From a virus (Duplodnaviria > Heunggongvirae > Uroviricota > Caudoviricetes), in the IMG/VR virus record IMGVR_UViG_3300017978_000250, positions 1 to 64,000 of that record: a DNA stretch of 64,000 nucleotides; one strand, given 5' to 3'. The notes beneath the pieces are model-generated. The model was given only the letters and a program-made list of their open reading frames with translations. It was not told the origin of the DNA and made no database searches. Shown here in pieces: positions 9,022 to 37,541 of this stretch. Every line of letters starts with the position of its first letter. Within the stretch, counting starts at the first letter, position 1. Made by a program: the position numbers and the translations under genes.

Positions 9022-11163
9022 TTAGATTCCTTTTACTTGGTCAATCAAATTAACATACTCTGCTACAGCCGATTTTTCAACGCCGTAACTCAGAGACTTT
9101 AACAGAGGATAACGAGTAAACACATCGTAAACATCCTTTGTATACTTATCAATCAATGCTTGTGGGCTAGTAGAAGTTTTCACATCATACCGAGAACACA
9201 ACCATTGAGTTGCATTTTGCACAGTCGAATCGATAGCCTTCACATCTTTGAATGTGTTCACTAATTTAGCGAACGGGCTATTTGCATCAATCTTGTCACT
9301 ATTATACTTGATAAAATCATTAATGTCAAGGTTTTGTTTTACCAAACCCATGATATTTGCCTTATCCATTTTAGCAAGTTTTTCAACAATGAATGTATCC
9401 AACTCAACCCAATTCTTTTGCAGTTTGACCCATTCAATGTCAGTCTTACGAACACCATGAATTGTACCAGTGTAAACACCAGACTTTTCTAAGTAACGAC
9501 CCAATGTCTTCACATCGGAGCACTTGTTCAAAGCAGTGAAGCCTGACAATGGGATGTAGTAGTAAGTTGTTTTGTTGTCAAACGTATCAGCTTTACCAGC
9601 ATCACGCCAGACCAACTCACCGCTGCCACCCCAACCACGACTGCGACCTTCTTCCAAACGCATGATAGTAACGTTCTTACCCATTGTTGAGGTACGTTCT
9701 TTTTCAAGCAACGAACTAGCCTGCATGAAATAACTTTCAGGAGGGTTTGCCAACAACTTTTTGAAACCTACCAAGTCAATTGGCTTAGTCTTGTCGTATG
9801 CTTCAATGACAAACACGTGGACACTATTAAGACCTTGATCCTTGATGAAAGAACTTTCTTTCACGTGATGCTTGGCTCTCTCAACAGCACCAACTTTAGT
9901 GTCATTGATTACGAAACGTGCTTCCTCAGCAATAGAAATATCCCATTCATTGTAATGAGCCTGTGCAGTAGCATCATAACGATGTGCAACTTTCATGTTA
10001 GTACATGCGGTGTAATTACGACTCTTGCTAAAGCCACGAATGATAATGTTGTGGTTAGTTTTCAGGTCACTTTCTGGGATAGCAAAACGATGTAAACGTG
10101 CCCAAGATTGGCTAGTGTTAACATACTCAAACTTGGTGTCGGTGCAATACTTAGTAACAGCAGACTGCCACAAATATGTGCTTGACTTCTTAGTAAGGAA
10201 CAAAGCCTTTTCCCAAGTGTTTGCGATACCGTCAGCTTCCTTAGCAACCACACCAGCGAGTGCCGCGTTTACTTCTTCCAACTTACGCTTGATTGATTCA
10301 ATTGTTTGTGGAATGTACGACAAGCCTTCACGTGACGCTTGAAAGTCAAGTTCACCGATACCAAATTCCATCATTAAGCCGCAATGCAACAAGTGACGCA
10401 ATTCACCGATAGTGTTATCAGCAGAAGGAATCTCGATTGGATATGCAATGTTACCCATGATAGCATAGCTACCACGACTATCTTTCATACTGTGAACACC
10501 GGGGATGATGTTTTCAGTTTCGTATTCAACCTTAGAAACTTCAAACTTGTCAACACCAGAGACAACTGGTTGTTGTTTGAACCACTTGTAAACTGAACGA
10601 GCCTCTTGACGGAACTTGTCAAAGTCATAACGGTCGTTAACTGAGAATTTAACCTCGACGCCATTTGGTTCGTCGGTGTTTTCAGTCATCATTTGGGCGA
10701 TACTAGGTACGCCAGATTCGTTGATAAACGCGGTGTAGACACCTTTGACACCATTCTGTACAGCAGTGACCGTGAAGTTATCGGTGTAAGAGAAAGGTGA
10801 CTTTGATCCAAGACCCAAAGCGCCGATGAATTCGTTGGACGCTGTTTTAGTACTTTCAAAGTAAGTGGTGTAGATGTTTGTGACCTGGTCAGCTGAAAGA
10901 CCTGTTCCATAGTCACGAATTGAGAACCAAGGTTCGAGTGAGTTGGGGAGGTGTACATCAAACGGCGTAGTGCTCTTGCCGGCAGCCACGTGCGAGTCCA
11001 CTGCGTTACATGATAGTTCACGAATGATAGCACGGACTTTGTTTGCATACAAACCTGATGAAAGAATTGAGAAAGCCTTCGCACTATTGCGAATACGAAA
11101 TTCACCAATTTGACCGACGTTTGAAACAACAGCTTGGTCTTGGGGAGCAGAATTTAGAATCAT
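9022..11163 (-). CDS. rIIA: rIIA protein (GHKL/HATPase-like N-terminal domain)
   Basis: 713 aa; N-terminal NAVDSH...IRDYGTGL HATPase-like motifs; gene order rIIA then rIIB as in T4. Confidence 0.8.
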   Translation of the reverse strand: MILNSAPQDQAVVSNVGQIGEFRIRNSAKAFSILSSGLYANKVRAIIRELSCNAVDSHVAAGKSTTPFDVHLPNSLEPWFSIRDYGTGLSADQVTNIYTTYFESTKTASNEFIGALGLGSKSPFSYTDNFTVTAVQNGVKGVYTAFINESGVPSIAQMMTENTDEPNGVEVKFSVNDRYDFDKFRQEARSVYKWFKQQPVVSGVDKFEVSKVEYETENIIPGVHSMKDSRGSYAIMGNIAYPIEIPSADNTIGELRHLLHCGLMMEFGIGELDFQASREGLSYIPQTIESIKRKLEEVNAALAGVVAKEADGIANTWEKALFLTKKSSTYLWQSAVTKYCTDTKFEYVNTSQSWARLHRFAIPESDLKTNHNIIIRGFSKSRNYTACTNMKVAHRYDATAQAHYNEWDISIAEEARFVINDTKVGAVERAKHHVKESSFIKDQGLNSVHVFVIEAYDKTKPIDLVGFKKLLANPPESYFMQASSLLEKERTSTMGKNVTIMRLEEGRSRGWGGSGELVWRDAGKADTFDNKTTYYYIPLSGFTALNKCSDVKTLGRYLEKSGVYTGTIHGVRKTDIEWVKLQKNWVELDTFIVEKLAKMDKANIMGLVKQNLDINDFIKYNSDKIDANSPFAKLVNTFKDVKAIDSTVQNATQWLCSRYDVKTSTSPQALIDKYTKDVYDVFTRYPLLKSLSYGVEKSAVAEYVNLIDQVKGI

Positions 11164-11550: not shown

Positions 11551-11868
11551 TTAGACCGAAACAATCTCAATTTTACCCTCGTCAATCCACTTGTCCCAAG
11601 TCAAGCAGGCGTAACCGTTATTGAAACTTTTGTATACAGTTCCATCCTTCTTTATCTTCTTGAAAAAGTAGGACTGACGCTGGGGCTTCAATTTGTCTGC
11701 TCCAGTGCAAAACGGGGCAAGTATGTACTCAACACGATATAAACCTGTTTTCCAGCAATCCTTATTGTAAACGCTAGGAATTGTTTCTTTTAGTTTTACA
11801 ACTGAACCTACTTGGAGCTTGAAATTGAATGACATAGTATTACCTTTAGTCAATGTAAGCAATGACAC
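11551..11868 (-). CDS. hypothetical protein
   Basis: 105-aa ORF. Confidence 0.5.
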   Translation of the reverse strand: MSLLTLTKGNTMSFNFKLQVGSVVKLKETIPSVYNKDCWKTGLYRVEYILAPFCTGADKLKPQRQSYFFKKIKKDGTVYKSFNNGYACLTWDKWIDEGKIEIVSV

Positions 11869-12139
11869 GAATGTACTCGGGACCGTAGTAAATTTCAGGA
11901 CTAGTCAGTTTTGGGATGCGACTTGTGAAACCTGCTTCGATAAACATGTCACGAGCAATTTCTAATACTTTACGACTATCACCGTAGACTGGGAAAACAA
12001 CTGAGCGGCGCTTGGGGTCATTCTCGGTAGTTTTCTCTGTATAGGTGTGTTCAACTGCACAGTTGGCAGCTTTGAATGCTTGGCGCAAGATAGCGCGGGC
12101 TTGTTTTGTAGTTGCAAACATTTTCGTTCCTTTTCTCAA
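11846..12139 (-). CDS. hypothetical protein
   Basis: 97-aa ORF downstream of promoter P5. Confidence 0.5.
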   Translation of the reverse strand: MRKGTKMFATTKQARAILRQAFKAANCAVEHTYTEKTTENDPKRRSVVFPVYGDSRKVLEIARDMFIEAGFTSRIPKLTSPEIYYGPEYIRVIAYID

Positions 12140-12150
12140 TCAATACATGT

Positions 12151-12179
12151 ATTATATGCCCAAAGTGATTATTTGTCAA
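12151..12179 (-). promoter_or_regulatory. sigma70 consensus-type promoter
   Basis: Minus TTGACAAATAATCACTTTGGGCATATAAT. Confidence 0.65.
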
Positions 12180-12236
12180 CCTTTGGGCATACATTTGTAA
12201 AGATACAACAGTTTGAAAAGGTAGTACTTCTGTTTC

Positions 12237-12545
12237 TTATTTCATTAAGAGTTCTTTTAGCTTTTTAGCTGTGATAACTTCGTGGACACCCTTCACATCT
12301 TTTATAACCATCTCCAGTTCAACTACTTCCCATTCAGCTACACGGTTGCGATGATTTTTACTATTCCGATTGTAACCACTATCAGAATTCATAACACCAG
12401 TTATGAACGTGCGTAGTTGCCCCAGTGTTTGAAAGATGCGACCGGTCTTGTCGTAGCTTTGGTAGTAGGGAGTGCCCTTAACAAATAGTTCAGGGTCGTT
12501 TTTGCTTCTAATCTTGTAAAAAATCATAATTTTAATGTTGCCCAC
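12237..12545 (-). CDS. hypothetical protein
   Basis: 102-aa ORF. Confidence 0.5.
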   Translation of the reverse strand: MGNIKIMIFYKIRSKNDPELFVKGTPYYQSYDKTGRIFQTLGQLRTFITGVMNSDSGYNRNSKNHRNRVAEWEVVELEMVIKDVKGVHEVITAKKLKELLMK

Positions 12546-16894: not shown

Positions 16895-17100
16895 TGTAAG
16901 CCCTTTCCATTGAGTAGTTGGTCATGAATGACGATACCTTGTGCCTTAGACTTGAGCGCCTTACGCAGGTAGCGATTCTGTTCTTCTGTCGTTTCGGCCC
17001 AGTATGCGAAACCTTTGAGACAATCATAACGGTCGTAGTACCAAGTCAGCTTAGCCATTGCGGCGCCTAGTCTGTACCATGGATTATCAAAATCGTTCAT
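16891..17100 (-). CDS. hypothetical protein
   Basis: 69-aa ORF. Confidence 0.45.
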   Translation of the reverse strand: MNDFDNPWYRLGAAMAKLTWYYDRYDCLKGFAYWAETTEEQNRYLRKALKSKAQGIVIHDQLLNGKGLQ

Positions 17101-17438
17101 TACTTAACTCCGAATGTGTTCAATGCTGGTTGCAATGTGTTAATCAATTCTGTCTCACGTGCGTGTGCGGGACGCTTACCACGAACTACTTCAACCACAC
17201 CGAACACAAAACGCTCGGCACCATTTTCACGCAATGCACGAGACAAGCCCCAATCTTTGTTCTCAGCGAGGGCACGTTGCATGTGCTTTTGCATGCGGCG
17301 ATTCAATGTCTTACGCAAGTTACCTGCAAAGCAAACAGCAGTCAAACCAATGTAGTACTCAAGTGTTACTTTATCTTGGATAAAGTAAATCACTTGATTG
17401 CGGTCTGTTCTACGTTTGCGTGTGATTTTCGAGTTCAT
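17100..17438 (-). CDS. GIY-YIG nuclease domain protein
   Basis: VIYFIQDK...EYYIGLT GIY-YIG motif, conserved R and E downstream; 112 aa. Confidence 0.65.
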   Translation of the reverse strand: MNSKITRKRRTDRNQVIYFIQDKVTLEYYIGLTAVCFAGNLRKTLNRRMQKHMQRALAENKDWGLSRALRENGAERFVFGVVEVVRGKRPAHARETELINTLQPALNTFGVK

Positions 17439-17444: not shown

Positions 17445-17473
17445 ATTATATGCCCAAAACGATTATTTGTCAA
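17445..17473 (-). promoter_or_regulatory. sigma70 consensus-type promoter
   Basis: Minus TTGACAAATAATCGTTTTGGGCATATAAT. Confidence 0.65.
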
Positions 17474-17991
17474 CCGAAATTTTGTAACACTTTAGTAACA
17501 TATTCGTCACTACTATCACCCAAGTCTTTTTCGTCAGTAAAAAGTACTACATCTCCGAACTTTGCTAACTTACGGCCCGCGGCATCATTGTCACAAACGG
17601 CTACTACTTTTCTATTAAGACAAGTAAGCCAGTTACGCAAGTCGGGACTAGGGTTGTTAGACAGTACCGCTAACGCACTAAATCCACGCTGAGTGAGTCG
17701 GGCCGCATCGAACAGACCCTCACACACAAACACAACATGAGGGCTTAAATCCAGGCTTTCAACACCCCAGACAGCTAGAGTAGGAGTCTTTCTGTATGTG
17801 AAATACTTGCCTAGCTTGGGATTGTTGTTGGGCTTCTTGTCACCCTCAGGGCGATACTGTTGATAACCAACCAGTTGACCGCTGAGGTTATATAAGTAAA
17901 AAGTAGCAACACGTTCAACTTCATCGACCATTGGACGATGTAAGTCTACGTCAAGGTGACGACTTTTGAGGTGCTCTAATACTGTGTTCAT
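17470..17991 (-). CDS. Toprim-domain protein
   Basis: VFVCEGLFDA ... VAVCDNDAAGRKLA = Toprim E...DxD motifs. Confidence 0.6.
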   Translation of the reverse strand: MNTVLEHLKSRHLDVDLHRPMVDEVERVATFYLYNLSGQLVGYQQYRPEGDKKPNNNPKLGKYFTYRKTPTLAVWGVESLDLSPHVVFVCEGLFDAARLTQRGFSALAVLSNNPSPDLRNWLTCLNRKVVAVCDNDAAGRKLAKFGDVVLFTDEKDLGDSSDEYVTKVLQNFG

Positions 17992-18727: not shown

Positions 18728-19161
18728 TTACGAATGTATTCGTAATTCACCGTATCAGTGTTTTCACGGAATACACAAGCACCGTTCTTCATGTGAAAAC
18801 GTCTTGCTAGTTCAGTCTTTGGGCTTAGTGTAACAAAACGATTGACTGTAGGGTGTAGTTGCGTGATTTCTTCCACTGCTCTTGTTAACAACTCTCTGCC
18901 AGCGCCTGGCTTGTAACTCCAGATAGTGTAGAACACTGCTGTTGTAGGCACTTCTGTGACTTTTTCTAAGTCTTGGACTGACTCAGGAACAAAGTCATGG
19001 AAACTAACGCACACCATTGCTGATGGTTTGTCTTCTTGTGCTAGTGCTACTACTGTTCTTCCGTTACTTACGCGGAACTCAGTAGGGATATCAGGACGAA
19101 CGGGGTCGTCTTTGATGAATTGTAATAATTGGTGTGTGGGATTGGTGATGATTGTCAACAT
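18724..19161 (-). CDS. hypothetical protein (possible acetyltransferase-like fold)
   Basis: 145-aa ORF; weak GNAT-like motif only. Confidence 0.4.
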   Translation of the reverse strand: MLTIITNPTHQLLQFIKDDPVRPDIPTEFRVSNGRTVVALAQEDKPSAMVCVSFHDFVPESVQDLEKVTEVPTTAVFYTIWSYKPGAGRELLTRAVEEITQLHPTVNRFVTLSPKTELARRFHMKNGACVFRENTDTVNYEYIRK

Positions 19162-19212
19162 GGCTCGCTACTTTAAAAATGTATTTATGCCAGGCTGCAA
19201 AAAAGTCGTATA

Positions 19213-20019
19213 TTATGCGTTGTAGATTTTCTTCAAACTCTGTTCAACTATACGCTGGCGTTCTTGTTTTGTCTTAGCACCTAACACAGTTATATTATAC
19301 AGCTTATCGTTAGACATTACAAGCATTGTGATACAAAAACCGGCTGCTCTGGTAAAACCTGTTTTGATTGTAACGATACCTTCACGACCAAAGAAGTTAC
19401 TCGTTGGATGTGCTGTAATCTTACGCTCACCTTCACGTGTAACCTTGTGTCTGTTCTTATATTTCTTAACAGTCTTTACACCTTCAGCGTTTGCATTGAC
19501 TTCTTTCTGAGTCTTTGCGGCAGATTGTACTTGCTTGAACTCGCTAACTGCTTTAGTCAACGCCACAACGTCACTGATACTTGAGTAGTTCATGGGGCTT
19601 AGACCAGTTGGCTCGACAAAGCCAGTATGAAACATCTTTAGTTCGTCAGCATGTTTGTTCATTTGGTAGACAAAGTAGTTCATGCCACCTGGATAGTTCT
19701 CACCTAAAGTAATCGCGGCAATGTTGTCGCTGGACACTAGAGCAAGGTCAATTAGTTCTCTACGTGTTAAACGCATCCCTTTTTGTAACTTGGTATTGGG
19801 GGTACGTTGACTACGTACAGTGAGCTTTTCGTCCAAGTCTTGGTCTGCTTTTAATACAGTATAGATAGTCATTAGTTTACTGATACTAGCAATGCTTTTC
19901 TCAGTGTCAGCTAGGGAACCGGTAATGACTTGATTATTAGTTACGTTGTAGACTACTGTTTCAGTCTTAGCAAAAGCCAAGAAAGGTAGTAGCGTCAACA
20001 ATAGAATAATTTTACGCAT
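19213..20019 (-). CDS. secreted D-alanyl-D-alanine carboxypeptidase (peptidase S11, PBP5-like)
   Basis: Signal peptide; SxxK (SISKL), SxN (SSDN) and KTG (KTGFT) motifs. Confidence 0.75.
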   Translation of the reverse strand: MRKIILLLTLLPFLAFAKTETVVYNVTNNQVITGSLADTEKSIASISKLMTIYTVLKADQDLDEKLTVRSQRTPNTKLQKGMRLTRRELIDLALVSSDNIAAITLGENYPGGMNYFVYQMNKHADELKMFHTGFVEPTGLSPMNYSSISDVVALTKAVSEFKQVQSAAKTQKEVNANAEGVKTVKKYKNRHKVTREGERKITAHPTSNFFGREGIVTIKTGFTRAAGFCITMLVMSNDKLYNITVLGAKTKQERQRIVEQSLKKIYNA

Positions 20020-20084
20020 CAGATATTTATTATATCTGAAACCAGCATCATTGTACAGAAGTATGGAAGTATAGCCAAAAAAAT

Positions 20085-20105
20085 AGACCCCGAAGGGTCT
20101 AAAAG
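20085..20105 (-). terminator. intrinsic terminator
   Basis: AGACCC-TTCG-GGGTCT followed by T7 on minus strand. Confidence 0.6.
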
Positions 20106-20110
20106 TTCTA

Positions 20111-20302
20111 TTATACTCGCTTAACCATATCAGTTAATCGGTCAATCTCGTTCGCAGCCTCTTCAAGTAAGTCAGCAATGCGGTCGGGCTTGCCTTCTTC
20201 CACTGACTTACGACCTTGAATCTGTCTGCGAATCTCTGCCCTCTTGCGAAGGCGAAAGACTAGACTTTGTTCAGAGACAGGCAAATGACTTTCATCAATC
20301 AT
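20111..20302 (-). CDS. hypothetical protein
   Basis: 63-aa ORF followed by terminator hairpin. Confidence 0.45.
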   Translation of the reverse strand: MIDESHLPVSEQSLVFRLRKRAEIRRQIQGRKSVEEGKPDRIADLLEEAANEIDRLTDMVKRV

Positions 20303-21240
20303 ACTGCCTCCACAAAGTTACGAACCCATGCTAAACGAGCTTGTTCATCCATAGCTGTGTATTCAACAATGTTTGCACGAATAGCGTCTACCAGTGGGTA
20401 GTATTCTTCGTCCAAGTTCTTCTTGATATCAGCTTGCATGTTTACTAACTTGTCAGTACGAGGGTTACGTGCTACCCACTTGCTAGTCAAGTAGTACGGA
20501 CTCTTGATTTTAGCACTACGACCGTCTTCTGTGTAGAATACGAAACCTTCATGCTTAACCTTCTTAGACATTGCTACAAGTTCGCCAACAGTAGTATGAA
20601 CTGCTTCCGCATATCCACACTTCAAATGGCTCATTGCATAGTCACGTGACCAATCTGCCATATCCTTGCCATACATCTTTACCTTAGAGTCCCAAGAGTT
20701 TTCGCGGCAACCTAAGAAGTACATACCAGCGTCTTCTGGGACAATATGTGGATCACTTGGATGCACACATTCAAACATCAAGGTCATACCTTCTGCCGAC
20801 TTTAGTTCCATTTGCCAGTCTGTCCAAGGCATGTGCTTCTGCATCATTTCCTTAGCGTACTCAACATAGTCGTTAGCAGTTGAACCAGTAGTTGACACCA
20901 GAACATCGTTGTTGTACCAAGTCATAGCAACCATAAAGCCGTTAACTTTGCGATATGCTGTAACCTTTACATCGTCGGACAATACAGGAGCCTTTGCTTC
21001 TATACCGTAGTTGTAAATCTTAGTGAATGGACGAGACACGATATTGAAATCTTTGTCCACAATAGTACCACGACATTCTTCTAAGTAGTCATTCCACAAG
21101 TTATCAAAGAAAACTGTCTTCTTATACTTCAACACAAAGATACCGTCGCCGGCACTACGCATTGAAACTAGTTTTGGGTTGTCTTCTACAAACTTCTTTA
21201 AGTCTTCCTTACGCATACAATATTTCCTTAAAGCCTTCAT
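20299..21240 (-). CDS. RNA ligase (Rnl1-like nucleotidyltransferase)
   Basis: 313 aa with KxNG-type lysine motif (YRKVNGFMV); adjacent to PNK kinase and phosphatase genes. Confidence 0.55.
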   Translation of the reverse strand: MKALRKYCMRKEDLKKFVEDNPKLVSMRSAGDGIFVLKYKKTVFFDNLWNDYLEECRGTIVDKDFNIVSRPFTKIYNYGIEAKAPVLSDDVKVTAYRKVNGFMVAMTWYNNDVLVSTTGSTANDYVEYAKEMMQKHMPWTDWQMELKSAEGMTLMFECVHPSDPHIVPEDAGMYFLGCRENSWDSKVKMYGKDMADWSRDYAMSHLKCGYAEAVHTTVGELVAMSKKVKHEGFVFYTEDGRSAKIKSPYYLTSKWVARNPRTDKLVNMQADIKKNLDEEYYPLVDAIRANIVEYTAMDEQARLAWVRNFVEAV

Positions 21241-21670
21241 CTAGTGTAGGCATTTGAAAACCACGAATCATTTGAACCATCACGTGTGATGGAATGTTCT
21301 TACCTGGACGTGATGCTAATCGTTCTTTCAACACAACCAATTCAGGTGTCTTGAACACAACAGCAACATGGTCATAGTCTGGCAACATGTTAAACTTCTT
21401 TCGGCGTGAGCCAATAGTAGTAGATGTTTGGTCCCAGATAATATCCTTACCAGCTTCGCGGGCTCGAACAACTTTTTCAGCCATCAACTTTACAGCAGTT
21501 GGCATGTAGTCGTCAAATACATCAGAGTAAGTGGAACCTACTTCCTTTGCATAGTCTTCTACAAATTCATCAGTGCTAACAACAACACAGTCCTTAGACC
21601 AGTCTTGCAACTTTATCCAAGTACTCTTGCCTGCTGCCGGTACACCGACTAATTGATAACACTTTGTCAT
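21209..21670 (-). CDS. polynucleotide 5'-kinase (P-loop, T4 Pnk kinase-domain-like)
   Basis: Walker A GVPAAGKST; 153 aa. Confidence 0.65.
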   Translation of the reverse strand: MTKCYQLVGVPAAGKSTWIKLQDWSKDCVVVSTDEFVEDYAKEVGSTYSDVFDDYMPTAVKLMAEKVVRAREAGKDIIWDQTSTTIGSRRKKFNMLPDYDHVAVVFKTPELVVLKERLASRPGKNIPSHVMVQMIRGFQMPTLDEGFKEILYA

Positions 21671-21680
21671 AACTTACTCC

Positions 21681-22226
21681 TTAGTGGTGAGACTTAATCT
21701 CACCTTTCAATGCGTCAGCAATCATATCGTCAAAGTTGCTTACAACTTTACCAGTAGCGTCAAACGCTACATCACGGGCACGATACTTTTCCAAGCCAGT
21801 CACTGCGCCATGAACGTGTCCATAGAAGTGAACTGCGCCTCGATGCATCTGGTCCCATTCCAAGATTGGAAAGTGAAACATACAAACGATTTGACCGTTG
21901 TGGTTGTAACGCAAGTACTTGTGAACCTCTTTGAAACATGCTCGGAAGCCTGCGTCATTCAAGTTCTTAACGTCATGGTTACCCTCAATCAAAATCTTTG
22001 TACCATTCAACCGTTGCATGATAGCAGTTGCCTTTTGTGCGTTGCAAAATGCAACGTCACCCAAGATAAAGACCTCGTCTTCGGGAGCAACTTTGCTGTT
22101 CCACTCACGAATCATCTTCTCATCCATATCCACTACATCAGTGAAGCCTGCCCGAGTTACTGGGCAAAACTTCATAATGTTTGCGTGACCGAAATGCAAG
22201 TCACTTGTAATCCATTTTGTCATCAT
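21681..22226 (-). CDS. calcineurin-like metallophosphoesterase (putative 2',3'/3'-phosphatase)
   Basis: DLHFGH ... GDV ... GNHD motifs of the MPP family. Confidence 0.75.
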   Translation of the reverse strand: MMTKWITSDLHFGHANIMKFCPVTRAGFTDVVDMDEKMIREWNSKVAPEDEVFILGDVAFCNAQKATAIMQRLNGTKILIEGNHDVKNLNDAGFRACFKEVHKYLRYNHNGQIVCMFHFPILEWDQMHRGAVHFYGHVHGAVTGLEKYRARDVAFDATGKVVSNFDDMIADALKGEIKSHH

Positions 22227-22423
22227 TATTCTCCTATGTACTCACGAACCCATTCAAACTCAGCTTCACTAGCTTTGATCCATTTGAATTGTTCGCGGCG
22301 TCTGTTTATTTTATCAAAATCTTGGCAGATAAAAATCCAACCCTTGTCTTGTGAGAACATGACGGTGTCTTGGACTTTGACAATCTGTACGATTTTGCCC
22401 TTCATCTTTGCTACAATCATCAT
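22226..22423 (-). CDS. hypothetical protein
   Basis: Start set at MMIVAK with GGGAGAG RBS so that promoter P11 lies upstream. Confidence 0.45.
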   Translation of the reverse strand: MMIVAKMKGKIVQIVKVQDTVMFSQDKGWIFICQDFDKINRRREQFKWIKASEAEFEWVREYIGE

Positions 22424-22447
22424 GCTTCTCTCCCAATCAATATATGT

Positions 22448-22476
22448 ATTATATACCCAAAACCATTTATTGTCAA
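22448..22476 (-). promoter_or_regulatory. sigma70 consensus-type promoter
   Basis: Minus TTGACAATAAATGGTTTTGGGTATATAAT. Confidence 0.65.
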
Positions 22477-22838
22477 CCTCTAGCGTTGCGCCACCAGACT
22501 GGTTGGTCACGGAAGCGTAGTTGAAGATACTCTTTTACTACTTCTGTTTTCATTTTTGAAAACCCTGTTTTCAGTAGAAAAAACAATTCGTCCTTCTCTG
22601 TTTCTACACCAACTTGATATACATCGCCGTCACTTATCCTGGCGTGACTGTTACAAACAAACTCAATCAATGTTCCAGTTTCTACTCTAAGTATCTCCGT
22701 TGGGGAACTAGAAATACTCCAATCGTATTTGTACCCAGAAGGTACCTCTACGTAGAAAATGTGCATTACACTCGCACACGCTTTGGTGCGCCGATACGAC
22801 TTGCTTTGTTCCAGTCGTAAGCAACGCCGTCTGGGCAC
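22473..22838 (-). CDS. hypothetical protein
   Basis: 121-aa ORF. Confidence 0.45.
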   Translation of the reverse strand: MPRRRCLRLEQSKSYRRTKACASVMHIFYVEVPSGYKYDWSISSSPTEILRVETGTLIEFVCNSHARISDGDVYQVGVETEKDELFFLLKTGFSKMKTEVVKEYLQLRFRDQPVWWRNARG

Positions 22839-22993
22839 TTGCCATCTTTAACTGAATCAACACCGAACATGCCCACGATTTCAAAGTCTGGTCCAGTGAT
22901 AGTCACAAACTCGTTCATCTTCTTTGCTAAGAACATAGCTTCGTCCAATGACAAAACTTCATATTCTACATTCTTGCCTGTTACCTTAAACAT
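22766..22993 (-). CDS. hypothetical protein
   Basis: 75-aa ORF, 3' overlap with next ORF. Confidence 0.4.
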   Translation of the reverse strand: MFKVTGKNVEYEVLSLDEAMFLAKKMNEFVTITGPDFEIVGMFGVDSVKDGKCPDGVAYDWNKASRIGAPKRVRV

Positions 22994-23330
22994 TATCTAT
23001 CCTTTTCAATTTGTACTGAATTTCCAATCTTTCATGTGCTGCTATAGCTTGTTCCTTAGTGACATACCTAGTGATAACATCACTATCACCATTAGCAAAG
23101 AACCAGCAACTTTCGTATGGAGCAGCTCTATACAACTCGCTGTCCAATTCAACTGTGCTTAGAGTCCTGTCAGCAGGATACATCCAAACATGGTCGTCAC
23201 TGACGATTTGCCAACGTTCTTTATGCATACTATTAAGTGTCACCAAGCTGTTCCTCAGGTCGCTTATTCGGGATGATGAGTCCAGATTCAAGTTCAATTC
23301 CATTAATTGTGTGAGGTTCGTTTTCGTCAT
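22986..23330 (-). CDS. hypothetical protein
   Basis: 114-aa ORF. Confidence 0.45.
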   Translation of the reverse strand: MTKTNLTQLMELNLNLDSSSRISDLRNSLVTLNSMHKERWQIVSDDHVWMYPADRTLSTVELDSELYRAAPYESCWFFANGDSDVITRYVTKEQAIAAHERLEIQYKLKRIDNV

Positions 23331-23736
23331 AAGTCCATCCTAAATGTTTCATCATCTTGTGCTTAACCAACAGATTAGGGCTACGGAAAATTTCAGTATC
23401 TTCAAAGCCCAGCATCACTCCAACTTCACAAACTGCACCACTGCGACAAACGCCAGCAACACAATGCACAATCACATTCATGCGTTGACCGTATGCCTTC
23501 AGCAACAAGTCAACCAATTGTTGAGCCTGTGCATCGGTGACTTTAAATTCCTCAGCACTTGGCATGTCGTCTTTTTCAAGGTCTAAGAATTCAAACTGGT
23601 GAACTTCTTTGAACTGATACTTGGGAGTAGGGAACTCCATACATGGGTCAACAATCTGGATGAGCATGGCATTCTCGCCCGGGTTGATGTGAAAACCTTT
23701 TTGAATGTCGCTCAATGCAACGTTTTGAATCCACAT
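23233..23736 (-). CDS. protein tyrosine / dual-specificity phosphatase
   Basis: VHCVAGVCRSGA = CX5R catalytic loop. Confidence 0.7.
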   Translation of the reverse strand: MWIQNVALSDIQKGFHINPGENAMLIQIVDPCMEFPTPKYQFKEVHQFEFLDLEKDDMPSAEEFKVTDAQAQQLVDLLLKAYGQRMNVIVHCVAGVCRSGAVCEVGVMLGFEDTEIFRSPNLLVKHKMMKHLGWTYDENEPHTINGIELESGLIIPNKRPEEQLGDT

Positions 23737-23738
23737 GT

Positions 23739-24194
23739 TTAATCCTCTCGAAACATTTTAATCATGGGTCCGTCAAGATAATCTCGTCCTGGATCCATGT
23801 CACTGTATACTGTCTTCTTACCAAACTTAGCATGTAGTTTTTCATACAATGCTTTTTCACTTGCCTCGTCAGCTAAAACTTTTGCAAGTTCTTTAGCCTT
23901 CTTAGCTTCCTTCTTCAAACGCTTTTTTTCTTCCTGTGCGTTGAATTCGTCAATACGTGCTTGGTATTCTTTGTCAGTTTCCCAACGATAGAAACAAGCA
24001 ACAACCTCAGTGCCACCGTCATAGCCTGCCCAATGAGTTTCGAACTCAACCATCAATTTTTCTTTAGTGGCTATTTCTTTAAACCGTGCATAGATTTTCT
24101 TAGAACCTTCAAGCATAGCGGGCAAGTCTTTGTTACTAAACATGTCATCAAGGTCAACATCTTGACGACGGACAAAAATTCGTTCTTTACTCAT
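23739..24194 (-). CDS. hypothetical protein
   Basis: 151-aa ORF with K/E-rich coiled-coil segment. Confidence 0.5.
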   Translation of the reverse strand: MSKERIFVRRQDVDLDDMFSNKDLPAMLEGSKKIYARFKEIATKEKLMVEFETHWAGYDGGTEVVACFYRWETDKEYQARIDEFNAQEEKKRLKKEAKKAKELAKVLADEASEKALYEKLHAKFGKKTVYSDMDPGRDYLDGPMIKMFRED

Positions 24195-24380: not shown

Positions 24381-24457
24381 TGGTGCCCTTGACAGGACTC
24401 GAACCTGCAGAACCTAGTCTCTCAAACTAGTGCCTATACCAATTCGGCTACAAGGGC
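24381..24457 (-). tRNA. tRNA, apparent anticodon GAG (Leu-type) but class I (short variable arm)
   Basis: Cloverleaf by eye: acceptor GCCCTTG/CAAGGGC, T-loop TTCGAGT, anticodon loop TTGAGAG, encoded CCA; directly downstream of promoter P12. Confidence 0.55.
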
Positions 24458-24475
24458 TTTTTCTTTCAATGATGT

Positions 24476-24504
24476 ATTATACAATGATTTGGGATTTATG
24501 TCAA
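24476..24504 (-). promoter_or_regulatory. sigma70 consensus-type promoter (TTGACA-17-TATAAT)
   Basis: Minus strand reads TTGACATAAATCCCAAATCATTGTATAAT. Confidence 0.7.
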
Positions 24505-25109
24505 GCGCAAAGGAAGCACCCTAGTTGCGCTGATAAAGACTTTTTATAGAATAGTAATATAAAGTATTAAAAATAAAGAACAAAAGACCTCAAGGGTAAT
24601 AATAATGCGAGATTTTCGTCTAGGGTGCTTATGTAAGTATACTGTCTTTTTCAAACACAGAGCCTGTCTTATCGGGCAGGGTGCGACATTATACTTACAT
24701 AAGTGTTCTATCACCTCTCACCACAAGAGTCATAGAACCGAGATGCCTACTCTGTCTACGTATTTATTTTATTCTGGCAGTTGTTAGCGTTCAACTTCCC
24801 TAGATTGTTTCCGTACTCTGAAATTGAGTCGTGTGGTCGAGTCCTAGTGTACCAGATAAGTGATAAGCCAACTTATCATTGGCCATTTGTTATCGTACAA
24901 ATGTAGACGGGGTTTGAGTTTGATATGTCACTAAATGCTCAATCCTGAGAAAGATTTTACGGCATGCCAGCATTTTTTATTGTGAACAGAAGGGGTCTCG
25001 GTTACTGTTTTTAAACTTCTTCATATCAAATTAGGGGTGAATGATTAGGCTGACTCCCAAGCGTCCTCGGGCTTTATTTAAAGTGACGCACACTCACCTA
25101 ATCAATCGT

Positions 25110-26528
25110 TTAAGCCAAGTCGTAACGAGGCTTCATTACGGTCTTCAACATGATTGCTTCTGGGGTGAAGTCATCCATGTTACCGCCCATGATACCACCA
25201 GCAACAGCAGGGCTGAAACCAGAGACTAGAGCAGTACCCTTCTTGTCAAAAGACACAGGGGTGTTACCGTAAGCGGCGTTCAAGTTCCAGAACACAACAT
25301 TAGGAACAGTGTAACCTGCATCCTTAAACTTGCGTTCAATCATTTCGATTGCTGATTCGTCACGGTCTACACCTTGGTCGAATTGCATATCTGAAAAGAT
25401 TACCAATGTTTCAGGCATTTCTGCTTGTGGAACATTGTTCTTAACTGCAACATCCAGGATCAATTCAAACGCCTTGTGCAAGTTAGTGTTAGCTACCTCG
25501 CCTGTGTTCATTTGGTCAATCTTTTGGTTGATGTTACCTGTTAGGTTCACCAACTTAGGACGGTTGCTGAAAGTCAAGAATGTATCCTTGAACTTACCAG
25601 TGTTCTTGTCAGCAAAGTACAAGCCCAAAGAGATTGCAACTTCCAAGCAGGTCAAGCCTGACTTAGAGTTGTAACCACCTGCTGGACAAGTCATTGAACC
25701 TGACGAGTCTACCATTGGCAACACGTTAGCGTCACCGATGTAGTTTGGCAATGCGTTCCATTGCGCTTCCACAACATCCAACTCAGTCTTAGACATAGAG
25801 TTGTAACGACCGATGCGACCCTTAAGGACATCGTACGGGAAGATTGCGGATGCGTTGATTTTAACGCCTGCTTCACCCTTCACCAACTTCGAAACGTATT
25901 CAGCGTATGTTTGACCATGACGACCGAATGCCTTCTTGTATCGTGCGTGAGCAACTGAAGGGACATGTGAGAAGTTGATAGAGTCCCAGTTGTTCGAACA
26001 CATTTGTGTTTCGACAACATTTGTCATACCAACTAGTGTCTTACGATATTGCTTTGGAGTCATACCGAAGAACTCGCGGATTTCACGTGCAAGGGTGCCC
26101 TTACGTGGAGTCCACTTCGCAGCCAAGCCATTGCCGGAACGCAAAGCGTCACCGAGAATGTTGAATGCTTCCCACTTTAGTTTAGGGTCGGTGAAAACGA
26201 ACAAGTCGTCAAATCGACCCACTTCTGGAATCTTCTTCATCAAACGCAAAGCGTCTTCAGGAGAAGTCTTTTCCAAGTGACGCAAAACTGAACGGAACAA
26301 TTCACGTTCACCTGAGCCACCACGAACGTCACGTGCCCATTGAGCAATACGCAACGCCAAATCGGAGTTTTCTACGAAGGCAGCAGTGAAAGCAGGGACA
26401 ATGTCCTTACCTCGGGATGCGCCAATGTTATAGAACAAATCAACGCAAGCGTTTGCGCTGGATGCTCGTGCCTTCATGCCATTGGCAGTGCGGGCTTCTT
26501 GGTTCTTAATCGCTTCTACGAACTTCAT
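25110..26528 (-). CDS. Ro60-like protein (helical TROVE-like N-terminal region plus vWA domain with MIDAS DxSxS)
   Basis: 472 aa; MIDAS motif MVDSSGSM; architecture helical domain plus vWA as in Ro60/Rsr orthologs; Y-RNA-like element in its 5' leader. Confidence 0.55.
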   Translation of the reverse strand: MKFVEAIKNQEARTANGMKARASSANACVDLFYNIGASRGKDIVPAFTAAFVENSDLALRIAQWARDVRGGSGERELFRSVLRHLEKTSPEDALRLMKKIPEVGRFDDLFVFTDPKLKWEAFNILGDALRSGNGLAAKWTPRKGTLAREIREFFGMTPKQYRKTLVGMTNVVETQMCSNNWDSINFSHVPSVAHARYKKAFGRHGQTYAEYVSKLVKGEAGVKINASAIFPYDVLKGRIGRYNSMSKTELDVVEAQWNALPNYIGDANVLPMVDSSGSMTCPAGGYNSKSGLTCLEVAISLGLYFADKNTGKFKDTFLTFSNRPKLVNLTGNINQKIDQMNTGEVANTNLHKAFELILDVAVKNNVPQAEMPETLVIFSDMQFDQGVDRDESAIEMIERKFKDAGYTVPNVVFWNLNAAYGNTPVSFDKKGTALVSGFSPAVAGGIMGGNMDDFTPEAIMLKTVMKPRYDLA

Positions 26529-26552
26529 AGTTTTTCCTTTCTGTGTGTATAT

Positions 26553-26618
26553 GAAGCAGGATACATTTTTTCTTTTATACCAAAAAGTTAAAAGTTGCTG
26601 TTAGTATCCTAAAATTTC
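26553..26618 (-). ncRNA. Y-RNA-like stem element (copy iv) in 5' leader of Ro60-like gene
   Basis: 5' UUUUAGGAUACUAACAGCAAC ... 3' GUAUCCUG; AGGAUAC pairs with GUAUCCU; lies between the Ro promoter and the ATG. Confidence 0.5.
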
Positions 26619-26636
26619 TTACTGTCTAAAGATGTT

Positions 26637-26665
26637 ATTATAACATCCTTTTGAAATACTGTCTG
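26637..26665 (-). promoter_or_regulatory. sigma70-like promoter for Ro60-like gene (CAGACA-17-TATAAT)
   Basis: Minus strand CAGACA then 17-nt spacer then TATAAT. Confidence 0.5.
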
Positions 26666-27116
26666 TACTTTTGGGTACATGACTGGATGGACGAGACGTA
26701 ATTTATTTTTAGGGTCACCCGTCGATATCTCATGACCTTAGCTAACACGTTCACTGTTAGACTGCATATCCCATGTTCTACGGGAGACTATCTTATATTC
26801 TACAAGCACTAGTTAGCCTACCTTGCGGATACTAACATGCGTTAATATTGTTACTTGCTGAAACCATCCAAATATAACAGGTTAGTTGTTGACTGCTTTT
26901 ATTTTACTCAGGCCATCACTCTGAGCTTGTTAGTCTATTTCAATAGCGACCTTCAACGATTCACAGATTTTAACCTGCTTCACTCCAGCCAACTACCATA
27001 GGGTCTAACGATTCATAGTTAATGAATATTGCTGCGCCTAACCTTATGAAACTCGATACAAGTATTATAGCACAAATTCTTTGTTCTACAATACATTTTG
27101 GGTAACTAAATACTGA

Positions 27117-27713
27117 ATGACTTTATACGAAGAACTAGGCTTACAGCCAGACTGCACAATGGACCAGATTAAACTAAAGTATAGAATACTTGCTGGTGTC
27201 CATCATCCAGATAAGGGTGGCGATGAAGAACGATTCAAACGTATAAAGTTTGCTTATGAAGTTCTCAGTGATCCTGCACGCCGTAGACAATACGATGAAG
27301 ACAAGACTACCGATGAACCAACAGATAAACACAAAGAGGCTATTTCAAATCTAGCCGAAGTGTTCTTTGCAATCATTCCCAACTTTGATTGTCTCGGTGG
27401 CAACTTAATAGAAGCCATGAAGAACGAAATCAACAAAGTTAAAGCCATTGCTTTAAAAAACTTAGTTGAGAATGATATGTATATTTCTAATTTGGAAGTT
27501 GTCAAAAGTAAATTGAAGATGAAGAATCCTGAAAAGGAAAACATCATACTAGCATTTATTGAAACTCAATTAGAAACACGGTTAAGAGATAAAATTATCT
27601 ATGAAAAGAGAATTTCTATATCTGACTTGATGTTGTCAATACTTGATGACTATCAGTATGGATTCCTTGAGTTATTCAATGAAGTTCCAACTGACATTGT
27701 TGGCGGAAACTGA
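27117..27713 (+). CDS. J-domain (DnaJ-like) protein
   Basis: YEELGL...YRILAGVHHPDKGG...FKRIKFAYEVLSD: J domain with HPD motif; 3' end overlaps tRNA-Ser on the opposite strand. Confidence 0.7.
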   Translation: MTLYEELGLQPDCTMDQIKLKYRILAGVHHPDKGGDEERFKRIKFAYEVLSDPARRRQYDEDKTTDEPTDKHKEAISNLAEVFFAIIPNFDCLGGNLIEAMKNEINKVKAIALKNLVENDMYISNLEVVKSKLKMKNPEKENIILAFIETQLETRLRDKIIYEKRISISDLMLSILDDYQYGFLELFNEVPTDIVGGN

Positions 27714-27790
27714 GAGATTCGAACTCTCGGAACACGTTAATGTTCGACGGTTTTCAAGACCGTTGCGTTAAACCACTCTGCCAAGTTTCC
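27701..27790 (-). tRNA. tRNA-Ser(UGA)
   Basis: Acceptor GGAAACU/AGUUUCC, anticodon loop CTTGAAA, long variable arm, TTCGAAT T-loop, encoded CCA. Confidence 0.75.
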
Positions 27791-27795
27791 ATTAT

Positions 27796-27871
27796 TGGTG
27801 GAGGTGACAGGGATCGAACCCGCTACCTATTGCTTGCAAAGCAACCGCTCTCCCAGATGAGCTACACCCCC
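27796..27871 (-). tRNA. tRNA-Ala(UGC)
   Basis: Anticodon loop TTTGCAA; G3:U70 pair in acceptor stem; encoded CCA. Confidence 0.7.
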
Positions 27872-27880
27872 CATTATTTC

Positions 27881-36312: not shown

Positions 36313-36380
36313 AACAGGATCGTTTTTGTCGCTAGACATCCAAAGTTAGCTTTTTGATTGCTGAACCGATCCTAAAACTG
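36313..36380 (-). ncRNA. Y-RNA-like stem element (copy v) with compensatory stem change
   Basis: 5' GUUUUAGGAUCGGUUCAGCAA ... 3' CGAUCCUGUUAU: AGGAUCG pairs with CGAUCCU where other copies have AGGAUAC/GUAUCCU. Confidence 0.5.
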
Positions 36381-36382
36381 AG

Positions 36383-36449
36383 GCCCCTGTGAGAGGAATT
36401 GAACCTCTACCACCGCGCGCCGTGTATGCTCCCATTACACTACACAGGG
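36383..36449 (-). ncRNA. 67-nt tRNA-like RNA lacking an anticodon arm
   Basis: Perfect acceptor CCCTGTG/CACAGGG, D arm GTGT-AATGGGAGCAT-ACAC, T arm AGAGG-TTCAATT-CCTCT, only 13 nt where anticodon and variable arms should be. Confidence 0.5.
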
Positions 36450-36456
36450 ATTGAAT

Positions 36457-36576
36457 TGGTGCCGCCGGAAGGATTCGAACCTCCATTACTTCCTTGAAAT
36501 GGAATTTTATGTTGCTGTAAGTACTCTTGTCAGAGTAGACCTTTTTAAGCGTCCTAGCCAATTAGACGACAGCGGC
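36457..36576 (-). ncRNA. 120-nt tRNA-like RNA: anticodon arm replaced by about 65-nt insertion carrying UACUUACAGCAAC motif
   Basis: Acceptor GCCGCTG/CGGCGGC plus CCA, D arm GTC-TAATTGGCTAG-GAC, T arm GGAGG-TTCGAAT-CCTTC; inserted hairpin TACTCT-GACA-AGAGTA followed by TACTTACAGCAAC. Confidence 0.5.
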
Positions 36577-36582
36577 ATTGTT

Positions 36583-36657
36583 TGGAGGGTCGTACAAGAT
36601 TCGAACTTGTGACTGCTGGTTTCGAAGACCAGAACTCTTCCACTGAGTTAACGACCC
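36583..36657 (-). tRNA. tRNA-Arg(UCG)
   Basis: Anticodon stem CTGGT/ACCAG, loop CTTCGAA, T loop TTCGAAT, CCA. Confidence 0.7.
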
Positions 36658-36820
36658 ATTGAATAGGTTTTTGAGAGACCAACTATCTTTCTCAAGGACT
36701 CATTGGCTTGTCTCGATTGAGAGAGTTTAACGACCTTGTGTAGCTACTGGCGTGTCAGTCACAAGAATAGGGACCTAGCGCACAAGGGACTCAATCTCAT
36801 CGTCTATCTCAAAACTTGAA

Positions 36821-36901
36821 TGTGTGTTGCAGGATTCGAACCTACATCCGGAGGTTGTTACGCCTCATGTAATGACGCCCTAACATTTATACTAAACACA
36901 C
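36821..36901 (-). tRNA. tRNA (81 nt, no encoded CCA), anticodon unresolved
   Basis: Acceptor GTGTGTT/AACACAC, T arm GTAGG-TTCGAAT-CCTGC; internal region does not give a clean cloverleaf by eye. Confidence 0.4.
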
Positions 36902-36907
36902 AAAACT

Positions 36908-36982
36908 TGGTGCTCCATGACAGACTTGAACTGCCTTCTCCGGACTACAAAACCGGTGTTCTACCACGTGAACTAATAGAGC
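36908..36982 (-). tRNA. tRNA-Thr(UGU) (Gln not excluded)
   Basis: D stem GTTC/GAAC, anticodon stem CCGGT/TCCGG with loop TTTGTAG, T loop TTCAAGT, CCA. Confidence 0.6.
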
Positions 36983-37113
36983 ATAATATAACAGGATACA
37001 TCTAGTGACCGAGTATGAATCGGTTGCTCTACCTTAGAGCGTATTTGGCAAACGCCAAATGTTGGAATCGAACCAACTGACTTTGTAAGTCGTTGCTGTA
37101 AGTATCCTAAAAC
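36983..37113 (-). ncRNA. Y-RNA-like RNA (copy i) with circularly permuted tRNA-like domain
   Basis: 5' GUUUUAGGAUACUUACAGCAAC; then T arm GTTGG-TTCGATT-CCAAC; acceptor stem closed by loop ATTTGGC-GTTT-GCCAAAT; D arm GCTC/GAGC; anticodon-like arm ACCGA-TTCATAC-TCGGT; 3' GUAUCCUGUUAUA pairs with 5' AGGAUAC; flanked by a tRNA 3' end and a tRNA 5' end. Confidence 0.55.
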
Positions 37114-37188
37114 TGGCGATGCATGGGAGAATCGAACTCCCGTCTCCGGATAGACAATCCGGGATAATGACCATTATATGAATGCACC
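37114..37188 (-). tRNA. tRNA, anticodon GUC-like (Asp?)
   Basis: Anticodon stem CCGGA/TCCGG with loop TTGTCTA, T arm GGGAG-TTCGATT-CTCCC, CCA; AT-rich D arm. Confidence 0.5.
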
Positions 37189-37195
37189 TTAAACT

Positions 37196-37273: not shown

Positions 37274-37280
37274 ATAAAAT

Positions 37281-37355: not shown

Positions 37356-37372
37356 ATATGTTTGGTGCCTCC

Positions 37373-37447: not shown

Positions 37448-37457
37448 TGGTGGATGT

Positions 37458-37532: not shown

Positions 37533-37541
37533 GGTGCGTGA

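Follow-up and report, generated by a model that had tools for sequence, protein, structure and literature searches.

A five-gene operon on the minus strand of a 64,000-nucleotide stretch of phage DNA (IMG/VR record IMGVR_UViG_3300017978_000250, positions 1 to 64,000; the whole stretch is called the window here) encodes a metallophosphoesterase, a P-loop kinase and an Rnl1-family RNA ligase, and we consider it likely that this is a phage-encoded operon for RNA end healing and sealing. An initial annotation, made from the sequence letters, had placed a calcineurin-like phosphoesterase, a Walker-A kinase and a ligase-like nucleotidyltransferase in three adjacent genes within 20299-22226, and had seen in them the enzyme set needed to heal and seal cut tRNAs. 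Three consecutive minus-strand open reading frames (ORFs) do lie at exactly these positions, namely 21681-22226 (181 amino acids, aa), 21209-21670 (153 aa) and 20299-21240 (313 aa). All three assignments stood up to the searches described below, as did the observation that the phosphatase is a separate metallophosphoesterase with no fused HAD domain. The heal-and-seal set itself is supported by family membership, intact motifs, operon structure, conserved neighborhood and gene fusions.

The cassette is larger than the three genes first described. Two small conserved ORFs complete a five-gene unit which, by sequence and consensus scans, runs from a promoter at 22476-22448 to a terminator at 20101-20084. 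In the order of transcription it consists of the promoter, an ORF of about 65 aa, the phosphoesterase, the kinase, the ligase, an ORF of 63 aa, and a hairpin followed by a T-run. The features, including one candidate gene in the preceding transcription unit, are as follows.

22448..22476, minus strand: promoter-like element TTGACA-17-TATAAT at the head of the operon, a 12/12 match to the sigma-70-type consensus (a consensus match alone)
22226..22423, minus strand: small conserved ORF of about 65 aa (called as 94 aa from a GTG at 22510), with homologues upstream of the phosphoesterase
21681..22226, minus strand: stand-alone dinuclear metallophosphoesterase, 181 aa, of the aq_1665/PHROG 547 clade (PHROG 547, PDB 1xm7, motifs)
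21209..21670, minus strand: P-loop polynucleotide 5'-kinase-like protein, 153 aa (Pfam AAA_33, PDB family profile)
20299..21240, minus strand: Rnl1-family ATP-dependent RNA ligase, 313-aa ORF, or 305 aa from 21216 (Pfam, motifs, T4 Rnl1 match)
20111..20302, minus strand: small conserved ORF of 63 aa, predicted from its sequence to be helical and charged, with homologues after the ligase
20084..20101, minus strand: intrinsic-terminator-like, GC-rich hairpin TAGACCCTTCGGGGTCTA followed by a T-run, 10 nucleotides past the last stop codon
23233..23736, minus strand: candidate Cys-based PTP/DSP-like phosphatase (HCxxGxxRS), 167 aa, in the preceding transcription unit

The promoter match falls within the mechanically called 94-aa ORF, and the ATG at 22423 carries a GGGAGAG ribosome-binding site; this ATG is therefore the likelier start of the first small ORF (22423-22226), the stop of which overlaps the phosphoesterase start. 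The kinase gene is preceded by AAGGAG. For the ligase, the second ATG (21216), which would give a protein of 305 aa, is the more likely start, since it has an AAGGAA ribosome-binding site and an 8-nucleotide overlap with the kinase stop (ATGCGTAA), and since ligase homologues begin at query residues 9-12. The ATG of the 63-aa ORF overlaps the ligase stop (ATGA). No near-identical DNA was found for 19000-24000 in the phage collection, and an exact look-up of the ligase protein sequence returned no match.

Catalytic residues and nearest relatives of the three enzymes

The ligase passes the Pfam profile RNA_lig_T4_1 (PF09511) with 60.2 bits against a cut-off of 28.3 (E 3.5e-16, profile positions 1-227 of 227) and matches PHROG 562 (E 2e-51). 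It has 3529 relatives among 1.84 billion representative proteins, and 87 of these were aligned as a family. Invariant across the 87 are K98, N100 and G101 of motif I (KxNG), E157 of motif III, E231 and G232 of motif IV and K244 and K246 of motif V, together with R57-G58 (ECRG), K74 and N77; Y76 is nearly invariant. Single-sequence searches of the PDB gave no match for the ligase and only weak, noise-level matches for the kinase, so family profiles were needed. With its family profile, the ligase matched T4 Rnl1 (2c5u) at E 3.4e-17, and the invariant residues aligned to the T4 motifs ECRG, PMEKFFN (K-FFN), K-DG, FE, EG and KIK, at positions which we take to be R54, K75, K99, E159, E227/G228 and K240/K242. 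The N-terminal nucleotide-binding residues that are specific to Rnl1 (T4 R54, K75 and F77) are matched as well. Alignment with Rnl1 was the check that the initial annotation had proposed for its ligase call, with a lack of motifs III-V as the outcome that would count against it; motifs I, III, IV and V were all found.

An alignment-based AlphaFold2 model of the ligase (pLDDT 94) was compared with the PDB by Foldseek. T4 Rnl1 was the best match (E 5e-14), followed by fungal Trl1 ligase domains (1e-12) and Rnl3-type ligases (4e-10); Naegleria Rnl (2e-6) and T4 Rnl2 (7e-5) ranked lower, Rnl5-type enzymes were also matched, and DNA ligases appeared only far down the list. The fold is nearest to Rnl1, and not to Rnl2, Rnl3, Rnl5 or the DNA ligases. 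We place the protein in the Rnl1 family but do not regard it as orthologous to T4 gp63. "Tail fiber attachment catalyst", a common label in the databases, is inherited annotation.

Every cassette gene has its own level of identity between relatives. Within the ligase gene, the central part (20510-21025, about residues 72-244) is only 51-72% identical to two metagenomic relatives, L009 and L010, which are otherwise mostly 93-100% identical at the DNA level over about 5-6 kb, with a few short bins of 65-89% in L009. These per-gene levels, and the drop inside the ligase gene, indicate recombination both at the level of genes and within them.

The kinase passes Pfam AAA_33 with 65.3 bits against a cut-off of 27 (E 9.5e-18). 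A family profile built from 13 clade members matched the kinase domain of Clostridium thermocellum Pnkp (CthPnkp; 4gp7) at E 4e-15, the tRNA kinase PSTK at 7e-15 and Pnkp1 (4xrp), which belongs to a bacterial RNA repair complex, at 2e-14, and further down T4 Pnk (1ly1) at 2.7e-10 and mammalian PNKP at 2e-9, while shikimate, gluconate and adenylate kinases scored 3e-5 or weaker. Residues G9-x4-G14-K15-S16-T17 (Walker A), D34, D80, T82 and R89 are invariant, and R121 and K124 nearly so. D34 aligns to the Asp of the SSD motif of CthPnk, which PMC3902929 gives as the general base, D38. Walker A, a catalytic Asp after strand 2, lid arginines and the nearest characterized relatives are all those of the polynucleotide 5'-kinase clade, and the protein is predicted to be a 5'-OH kinase.

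A second AAA_33 subclade (RGxPGSGKST...EAD...NT) was seen in two related loci, L051 and L057, and is also the kinase beside the ligase in phages RSP15, 4MG and PhAER-3. Its sites are L057 7930-8364, L051 14190-14795, L002 3376-3921, L003 5472-5879 and L094 3926-4327. This distribution points to displacement of the kinase within one system. Second-subclade kinases were considered as stand-ins in the relatives that have no kinase and were rejected, since they leave those gaps unfilled. An ORF upstream of the ligase of phage ACP17 was likewise rejected as a kinase; it has no P-loop, contains long hydrophobic stretches and does not align.

The phosphoesterase matches PHROG 547 "phosphoesterase" (E 1.8e-50) and a structure of the metallophosphoesterase fold, 1xm7 (aq_1665, a structural-genomics protein), at E 4.6e-8 as a single sequence and 8e-26 as a family profile. 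In 14 sequences, cultured-phage homologues included, D9-x-H11, G56-D57, G82-N83-H84-D85, H118 and G136-H137-x-H139 are invariant, and all six motifs of the dinuclear metallophosphoesterases (DxH, GD, GNH(D/E), H, GH and GHxH) are kept. The protein has no match to Pfam Metallophos (PF00149) at E<=0.01, and a close homologue carries only a "faint" precomputed match to that family. Its membership among the metallophosphoesterases therefore rests on the motifs, PHROG 547 and 1xm7.

In the PDB, the phosphoesterase family profile found only aq_1665 plus weak GpdQ-type phosphohydrolases, and no lambda-phosphatase or Pnkp phosphatase chain was among its matches at E<=1. These matches place the protein outside the lambda-phosphatase/CthPnkp clade and in the uncharacterized clade of aq_1665. 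Its linkage to the other genes suggests a 2',3'-cyclic phosphodiesterase or 3'-phosphatase that would heal the 3' end; because the protein lies outside the CthPnkp clade and its sole NCBIfam match is PdeM, we infer this RNA end-healing role from context. One close relative, L090, has a second Metallophos protein (266 aa, 11725-12525) at the place where an S11 peptidase stands in the window.

Linkage in other phages and alternative explanations

The phage belongs to an abundant uncultured clade, the contigs of which reach 240-483 kb. Across about 80 IMG/VR loci, the phosphoesterase (M), kinase (K) and ligase (L) stay clustered in varying order, including M-K-L, K-M-L, M-L...K and M-x-K-L. Thirty of these loci have at least 5 kb on each side; in this set, whose members are related and so not independent, 27 loci have the phosphoesterase, and 18 the kinase, no more than 5 kb from the ligase.

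A locus search with the ligase alignment gave only close relatives, and linkage across clades was therefore tested with a concatenated phosphoesterase and ligase protein query, run by tblastn against 50,697 GenBank phage records. We counted records in which one place covered at least 80% of the query; since the ligase makes up only 63% of the query, such coverage requires both genes on one strand. The maximal spacing of about 1.2 kb between the two genes comes from our reading of the piece-joining rule and from the listed spans. The phosphoesterase and ligase were adjacent on one strand in 452 records, compared with 743 records for the ligase alone and 1623 for the phosphoesterase alone. The 452 span phages of Ralstonia, Aeromonas, Escherichia, Klebsiella, Salmonella, Vibrio, Pseudomonas and Acinetobacter, and both spacing and order differ among them. 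An AAA_33 kinase joins the pair in RSP15 (K-L-x-x-M), 4MG (M-x-x-L-x-x-K) and PhAER-3 (M-L-K). An apparent phosphoesterase-ligase fusion in PhAER-3 was rejected, as it consists of two abutting genes of which the ligase is unannotated.

Genuine fusions were found among the 150 best ligase representatives. They comprise AAA_33-ligase proteins, one ligase-AAA_33 protein (its kinase half matches the kinase of the window at E 1e-13) and four single proteins of 700-812 aa with the order AAA_33-Metallophos-ligase; among cultured phages, the triple fusion is also known from those of Staphylococcus and Fusobacterium. In Bacillus phage Nate and Campylobacter phage F341, a kinase of the same clade as that of the window forms one protein with an HD phosphohydrolase, with an RNA ligase alongside. 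In Sinorhizobium phage phiN3, a kinase of this clade lies two genes from a phosphoesterase of the same clade as that of the window (34% identity, E 1e-20). We read these cases as analogue displacement; at the same step, T4 has a HAD domain. The linkage of these genes is not chance, and operon structure, conserved neighborhood and gene fusions support a functional linkage. Together, the data support a conserved arrangement of a kinase, some 3'-phosphoesterase and a ligase.

Two further observations concern these loci. The N-terminal half of PHROG 6931, which is fused to the kinase clade, was considered as a form of this phosphoesterase and rejected, being an HD domain. A SPFH (stomatin/prohibitin) gene also lies near the kinase-phosphoesterase pair of phiN3.

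In most related loci, the phosphoesterase is immediately preceded by a homologue of the ORF of about 65 aa (39-90% identity), and the ligase is followed at once by a homologue of the 63-aa ORF (60-97% identity). The latter lies within 5 kb of the ligase in 20 of the 30 fully flanked loci. Neither ORF matched Pfam, PHROG or NCBIfam. No homologue of the 63-aa ORF was found after the ligase in ACP17, RSP15, 4MG or PhAER-3, and the small ORFs that do follow the ligase in RSP15 and 4MG were rejected as its homologues. Both small ORFs are conserved, translationally coupled and clade-specific.

The Cys-phosphatase matches Pfam DSPc (E 2e-5) and PTP-SAK (E 2.5e-4) weakly, below the cut-off in both cases; H91, C92, R98 and S99 are invariant, and its PDB similarity to PTP/DSP enzymes is restricted to the active-site loop. 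It directly adjoins the kinase in many related loci and has one homologue among cultured phages. It is a possible accessory member of the cassette, and both it and the two small ORFs may have a role in repair.

The window also carries 44 tRNA genes at 24381-38883, on the same strand as the operon. The initial annotation was right about the very large tRNA complement and wrong in placing the cassette upstream of it; because the strand is shared, the operon is downstream of the array in the direction of transcription.

We propose the following course of repair. A metal-independent host ribonuclease, either an anticodon nuclease or a toxin, would cut RNA, most plausibly tRNA, leaving a 2',3'-cyclic phosphate and a 5'-OH. 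The stand-alone metallophosphoesterase would open the cyclic phosphate and then strip it, leaving a 3'-OH, and the P-loop kinase would move a phosphate from NTP onto the 5'-OH. The Rnl1-type ligase, adenylylated on Lys98, would then convert the 5'-phosphate to AppRNA and join it to the 3'-OH. The scheme starts from what was directly observed, that is, family membership, intact catalytic residues, operon organization, and the linkage and fusion of the three activities; RNA as the substrate, and the chemistry assigned to the phosphoesterase, would follow by analogy with T4 Pnkp/Rnl1 and with CthPnkp. tRNA as the particular substrate is suggested only by the neighboring 44-tRNA array and the T4 precedent, and an anticodon nuclease as the target is an analogy and not a result.

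Several observations weigh against RNA end healing and sealing by this set. The ligase reaches 34.9 bits against a cut-off of 242 for the NCBIfam equivalog of T4 RnlA (TIGR02308), and its profile can be aligned to T4 Rnl1 only as far as T4 residue 250. What follows motif V in the AlphaFold2 model is helical, only about 65 residues long and unmatched to the T4 C-terminal domain. As the alignment ends before the tRNA-specificity domain of T4 Rnl1, presumably residues ~255-374, a preference for tRNA is unreadable from homology. The PdeM match of the phosphoesterase is to a DNA-ligase-associated phosphoesterase (E 4e-4, 19.8 bits against a cut-off of 150), and phmmer finds no similarity between the phosphoesterase and the corresponding domains of the triple fusions. 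Of the phage records, 1623 contain the phosphoesterase family and 743 the ligase, so the phosphoesterase must also function where this ligase is absent, T5-like Vibrio phages being an example. No kinase lies within 5 kb of the ligase in 12 of the 30 fully flanked relatives, and in 9 none was found anywhere in the sequence retrieved, which extended up to 10 kb to either side.

Some of these points would also fit three genes that are neighbors in a mosaic accessory region and act independently, with the ligase working alone. The phosphoesterase might then be an anti-signaling cyclic-nucleotide phosphodiesterase or a protein phosphatase, and the kinase might act on nucleotides or other small molecules; for other calcineurin-like phage enzymes, signal-degrading roles have been proposed by Iyer et al. 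(PMC7824862). The many records among the 1623 that have the phosphoesterase without this ligase, the 12 relatives with no kinase nearby and the high mosaicism of the region, with identity jumping gene by gene, are what such independence would predict. It would leave unexplained, however, that 452 records keep the phosphoesterase and ligase adjacent on one strand in several orders, that the genes overlap at their start and stop codons inside a single promoter-terminator unit, and that kinase-ligase and kinase-phosphoesterase-ligase fusions occur among homologues. Moreover, the structures that match the kinase best are those of polynucleotide and not nucleotide kinases. Because the adjacency, fusion and operon evidence outweighs the points in its favor, we regard independent action as unlikely.

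It is quite improbable that the cassette serves to mature or maintain the phage's own RNAs (the 44-tRNA array, a tRNA with a 26-nucleotide D-loop insertion and a GOLLD RNA) and not to repair damage inflicted by the host. The operon does lie directly downstream of the tRNA/GOLLD array, with a DUF2828 protein (PHROG 850 "RNA-binding protein") between the two, and the insertion in the one tRNA is unusual. The phosphoesterase-ligase pair, however, is present in hundreds of phages, whose GOLLD content was outside the comparison, and no endonuclease that would create ligatable ends was found among the ORFs scanned. To our knowledge, bacterial and phage tRNA processing normally needs no ligase.

Repair of nicked or broken phage DNA, in the manner of ligase-associated PdeM systems, is very improbable: the weak PdeM similarity and the fact that, in vitro, DNA too is a substrate for polynucleotide kinases of this clade speak for it, but the ligase groups with the RNA ligases Rnl1 and Trl1 by sequence and fold, which makes DNA repair unlikely, and the related cultured phages 4MG and PhAER-3 encode a separate ATP-dependent DNA ligase nearby.

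RNA end healing and sealing thus being our preferred reading, a bolder form of it can be put forward tentatively. An aq_1665-type phosphoesterase and a KxNG Rnl1-like ligase could constitute a distinct, never-assayed RNA repair pathway common to more than 450 sequenced phages, a proposal that we would at present sooner doubt than accept. If it is true, the aq_1665 clade gains its first function, as an RNA 2',3'-cyclic phosphodiesterase or 3'-phosphatase. In the clade of the present phage, two small partner proteins and the Cys-phosphatase may add to the pathway. In the most adventurous version, the chemistry may resemble that of Trl1, with a 3'-OH/2'-phosphate intermediate and with the Cys-phosphatase clearing the junction 2'-phosphate without NAD.

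The tRNA array and surrounding genes

Midway through the tRNA array, at 31568-32033 (-), is a full-length copy of GOLLD (Rfam RF02032), a large structured RNA, with 208 bits against a gathering threshold of 150 (E 2e-57). In the direction of transcription it precedes the repair operon by about 9 kb, and tRNA-Lys(ctt), at 31898-31970, falls inside the match. The tRNA with the 26-nucleotide D-loop insertion (30487-30583, -) has a GAU (Ile) anticodon, scored 56 bits with Rfam and was missed by ARAGORN. An HNH endonuclease gene (34786-35418, -) also lies inside the array.

The DUF2828 protein also has a DUF7788 domain; it is 472 aa long, is encoded at 25110-26528 (-) between tRNA-Leu(gag) and the main tRNA array, and matches PHROG 850 at E 9e-143. 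It adjoins the ligase in a distant relative (L018). We considered it as a relative of Ro60/TROVE and found no sequence-level relationship in comparison with the PDB. A second perfect 12/12 promoter consensus lies at 24476-24504 (-), directly upstream of the isolated tRNA-Leu(gag) at 24381-24457 (-), and heads the transcription unit that contains the Cys-phosphatase-like gene.

On the other side, directly downstream of the operon, is a D-Ala-D-Ala carboxypeptidase (Peptidase_S11; 19213-20019, -) with an N-terminal hydrophobic segment that, by eye, resembles a signal peptide. Farther along are a stand-alone Toprim/primase fragment (17470-17991, -), a GIY-YIG homing-endonuclease-like ORF (17100-17438, -) and an rIIA-like protein (9022-11163, -; PHROG 612, E 2e-131). 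The segment 615-5886 (-) encodes a SPFH/Band-7 protein, an AAA ATPase, a nicotinamide phosphoribosyltransferase and an NMN adenylyltransferase-Nudix fusion, the latter two for NAD salvage. Beyond the array, at least eight radical-SAM ORFs are clustered at 39669-59365 on both strands, an unusually large number for a phage. SPASM domains are present in two of them, B12-binding domains in two and an HMPTM zinc ribbon in one, and the GC content of the region falls from about 0.42 to about 0.37.

Relation to known RNA repair systems

Phage RNA repair as such is not a new idea, and hundreds of sequenced phages carry the same pair of genes. In a computational study of jumbo phages, Iyer et al. (2021) described RNA repair with Rnl1 and Rnl2 ligases, polynucleotide kinases and phosphoesterases (PMC7824862, section 3.4.9), and in a few of these phages the phosphatase step appeared to use calcineurin-like or HD domains. 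With the concept established, the gain made here is incremental. It consists of the anatomy of the operon and of the finding that this phosphoesterase clade is the habitual neighbor of this ligase subfamily in hundreds of phages.

RNA-cleaving defenses, among them anticodon nucleases, HEPN toxins and Cas13, form a major branch of bacterial immunity, and T4 Pnkp/Rnl1 is the only counter-measure that has been studied in depth. Here, a large and abundant clade of uncultured phages pairs a very large tRNA supply with a repair set made of non-T4 parts. The 452 GenBank genomes with the phosphoesterase-ligase pairing are mostly annotated without linking the two genes and include phages under study for therapy (Pakpunavirus, Vequintavirinae). 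The pairing offers a testable function for the aq_1665 phosphoesterase clade, together with tractable cultured models.

Among cultured phages, a phosphoesterase is paired with an "RNA ligase and tail fiber attachment catalyst" in Vequintavirinae, phi92-like phages, Pakpunavirus, RSP15, PhAER-3 and others. These pairs belong to the same families as the genes of the window (PHROG 547 and PHROG 562), at 30-45% identity, and usually have an AAA_33 kinase nearby, which in several is of the second subclade; they differ in having neither the small ORFs nor the Cys-phosphatase of this clade. For the Pakpunavirus Adele, a polynucleotide kinase without a 3'-phosphatase domain was reported beside an RNA ligase in 2025, and the phosphoesterase was not connected with them (PMC12846349).

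The triple fusions of PHROG 8238, for instance those of Staphylococcus phage Stab22 and Fusobacterium phage Fnu1, have the same domain content (AAA_33, Metallophos and RNA_lig_T4_1), and their ligase domains are homologous to this ligase (E ~1e-37). They differ in being single proteins and in having a phosphoesterase of another clade, without phmmer similarity to that of the window. Our literature searches turned up no characterization of them.

Fungal and plant Trl1, the ligase domain of which was the second-best structural match, also has a KxNG motif I and combines kinase, cyclic phosphodiesterase and ligase. Trl1 uses a 2H cyclic phosphodiesterase and needs a junction 2'-phosphate, which is later removed by Tpt1. 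No 2H or Tpt1 gene was found among the window ORFs scanned.

T4 Pnkp and Rnl1, which by repairing tRNA counter the PrrC anticodon nuclease, cover between them the three activities of this set, with a 5'-kinase, a 3'-end phosphoesterase and a ligase of the Rnl1 family. T4 Pnk is homologous to this kinase, and T4 Rnl1, the best structural match of the ligase, has motifs I, III, IV and V and the Rnl1-specific Arg/Lys in common with it. In T4, however, a HAD phosphatase domain is fused to the kinase, whereas here the metallophosphoesterase is separate; motif I is KxDG in T4 Rnl1 and KxNG here; the C-terminal domain of T4 Rnl1 is unmatched in this ligase, which falls far short of the RnlA equivalog cut-off; and, unlike in T4, all the repair genes share one operon.

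The bacterial Pnkp proteins (CthPnkp and Pnkp1) present the same triad of P-loop kinase, dinuclear metallophosphoesterase and ATP-dependent ligase, and the CthPnkp kinase domain (4gp7, E 4e-15) is the nearest solved relative of this kinase. According to PMC2190708, the metallophosphoesterase domain of CthPnkp is biochemically proven to be a 2',3'-cyclic phosphodiesterase and phosphatase. The differences are that bacterial Pnkp is one polypeptide and the window has three separate genes; that its ligase forms a Pnkp-specific family of its own, whereas the ligase here is of the Rnl1 type; and that the CthPnkp phosphatase is not among the PDB matches of the phosphoesterase, which is of the aq_1665 type. 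With three separate genes, and with neither Hen1 nor another methyltransferase found in a non-exhaustive scan of the window ORFs, the arrangement is not that of Pnkp-Hen1. In its architecture of kinase, phosphoesterase and ligase, the operon is nevertheless closer to bacterial Pnkp than to T4.

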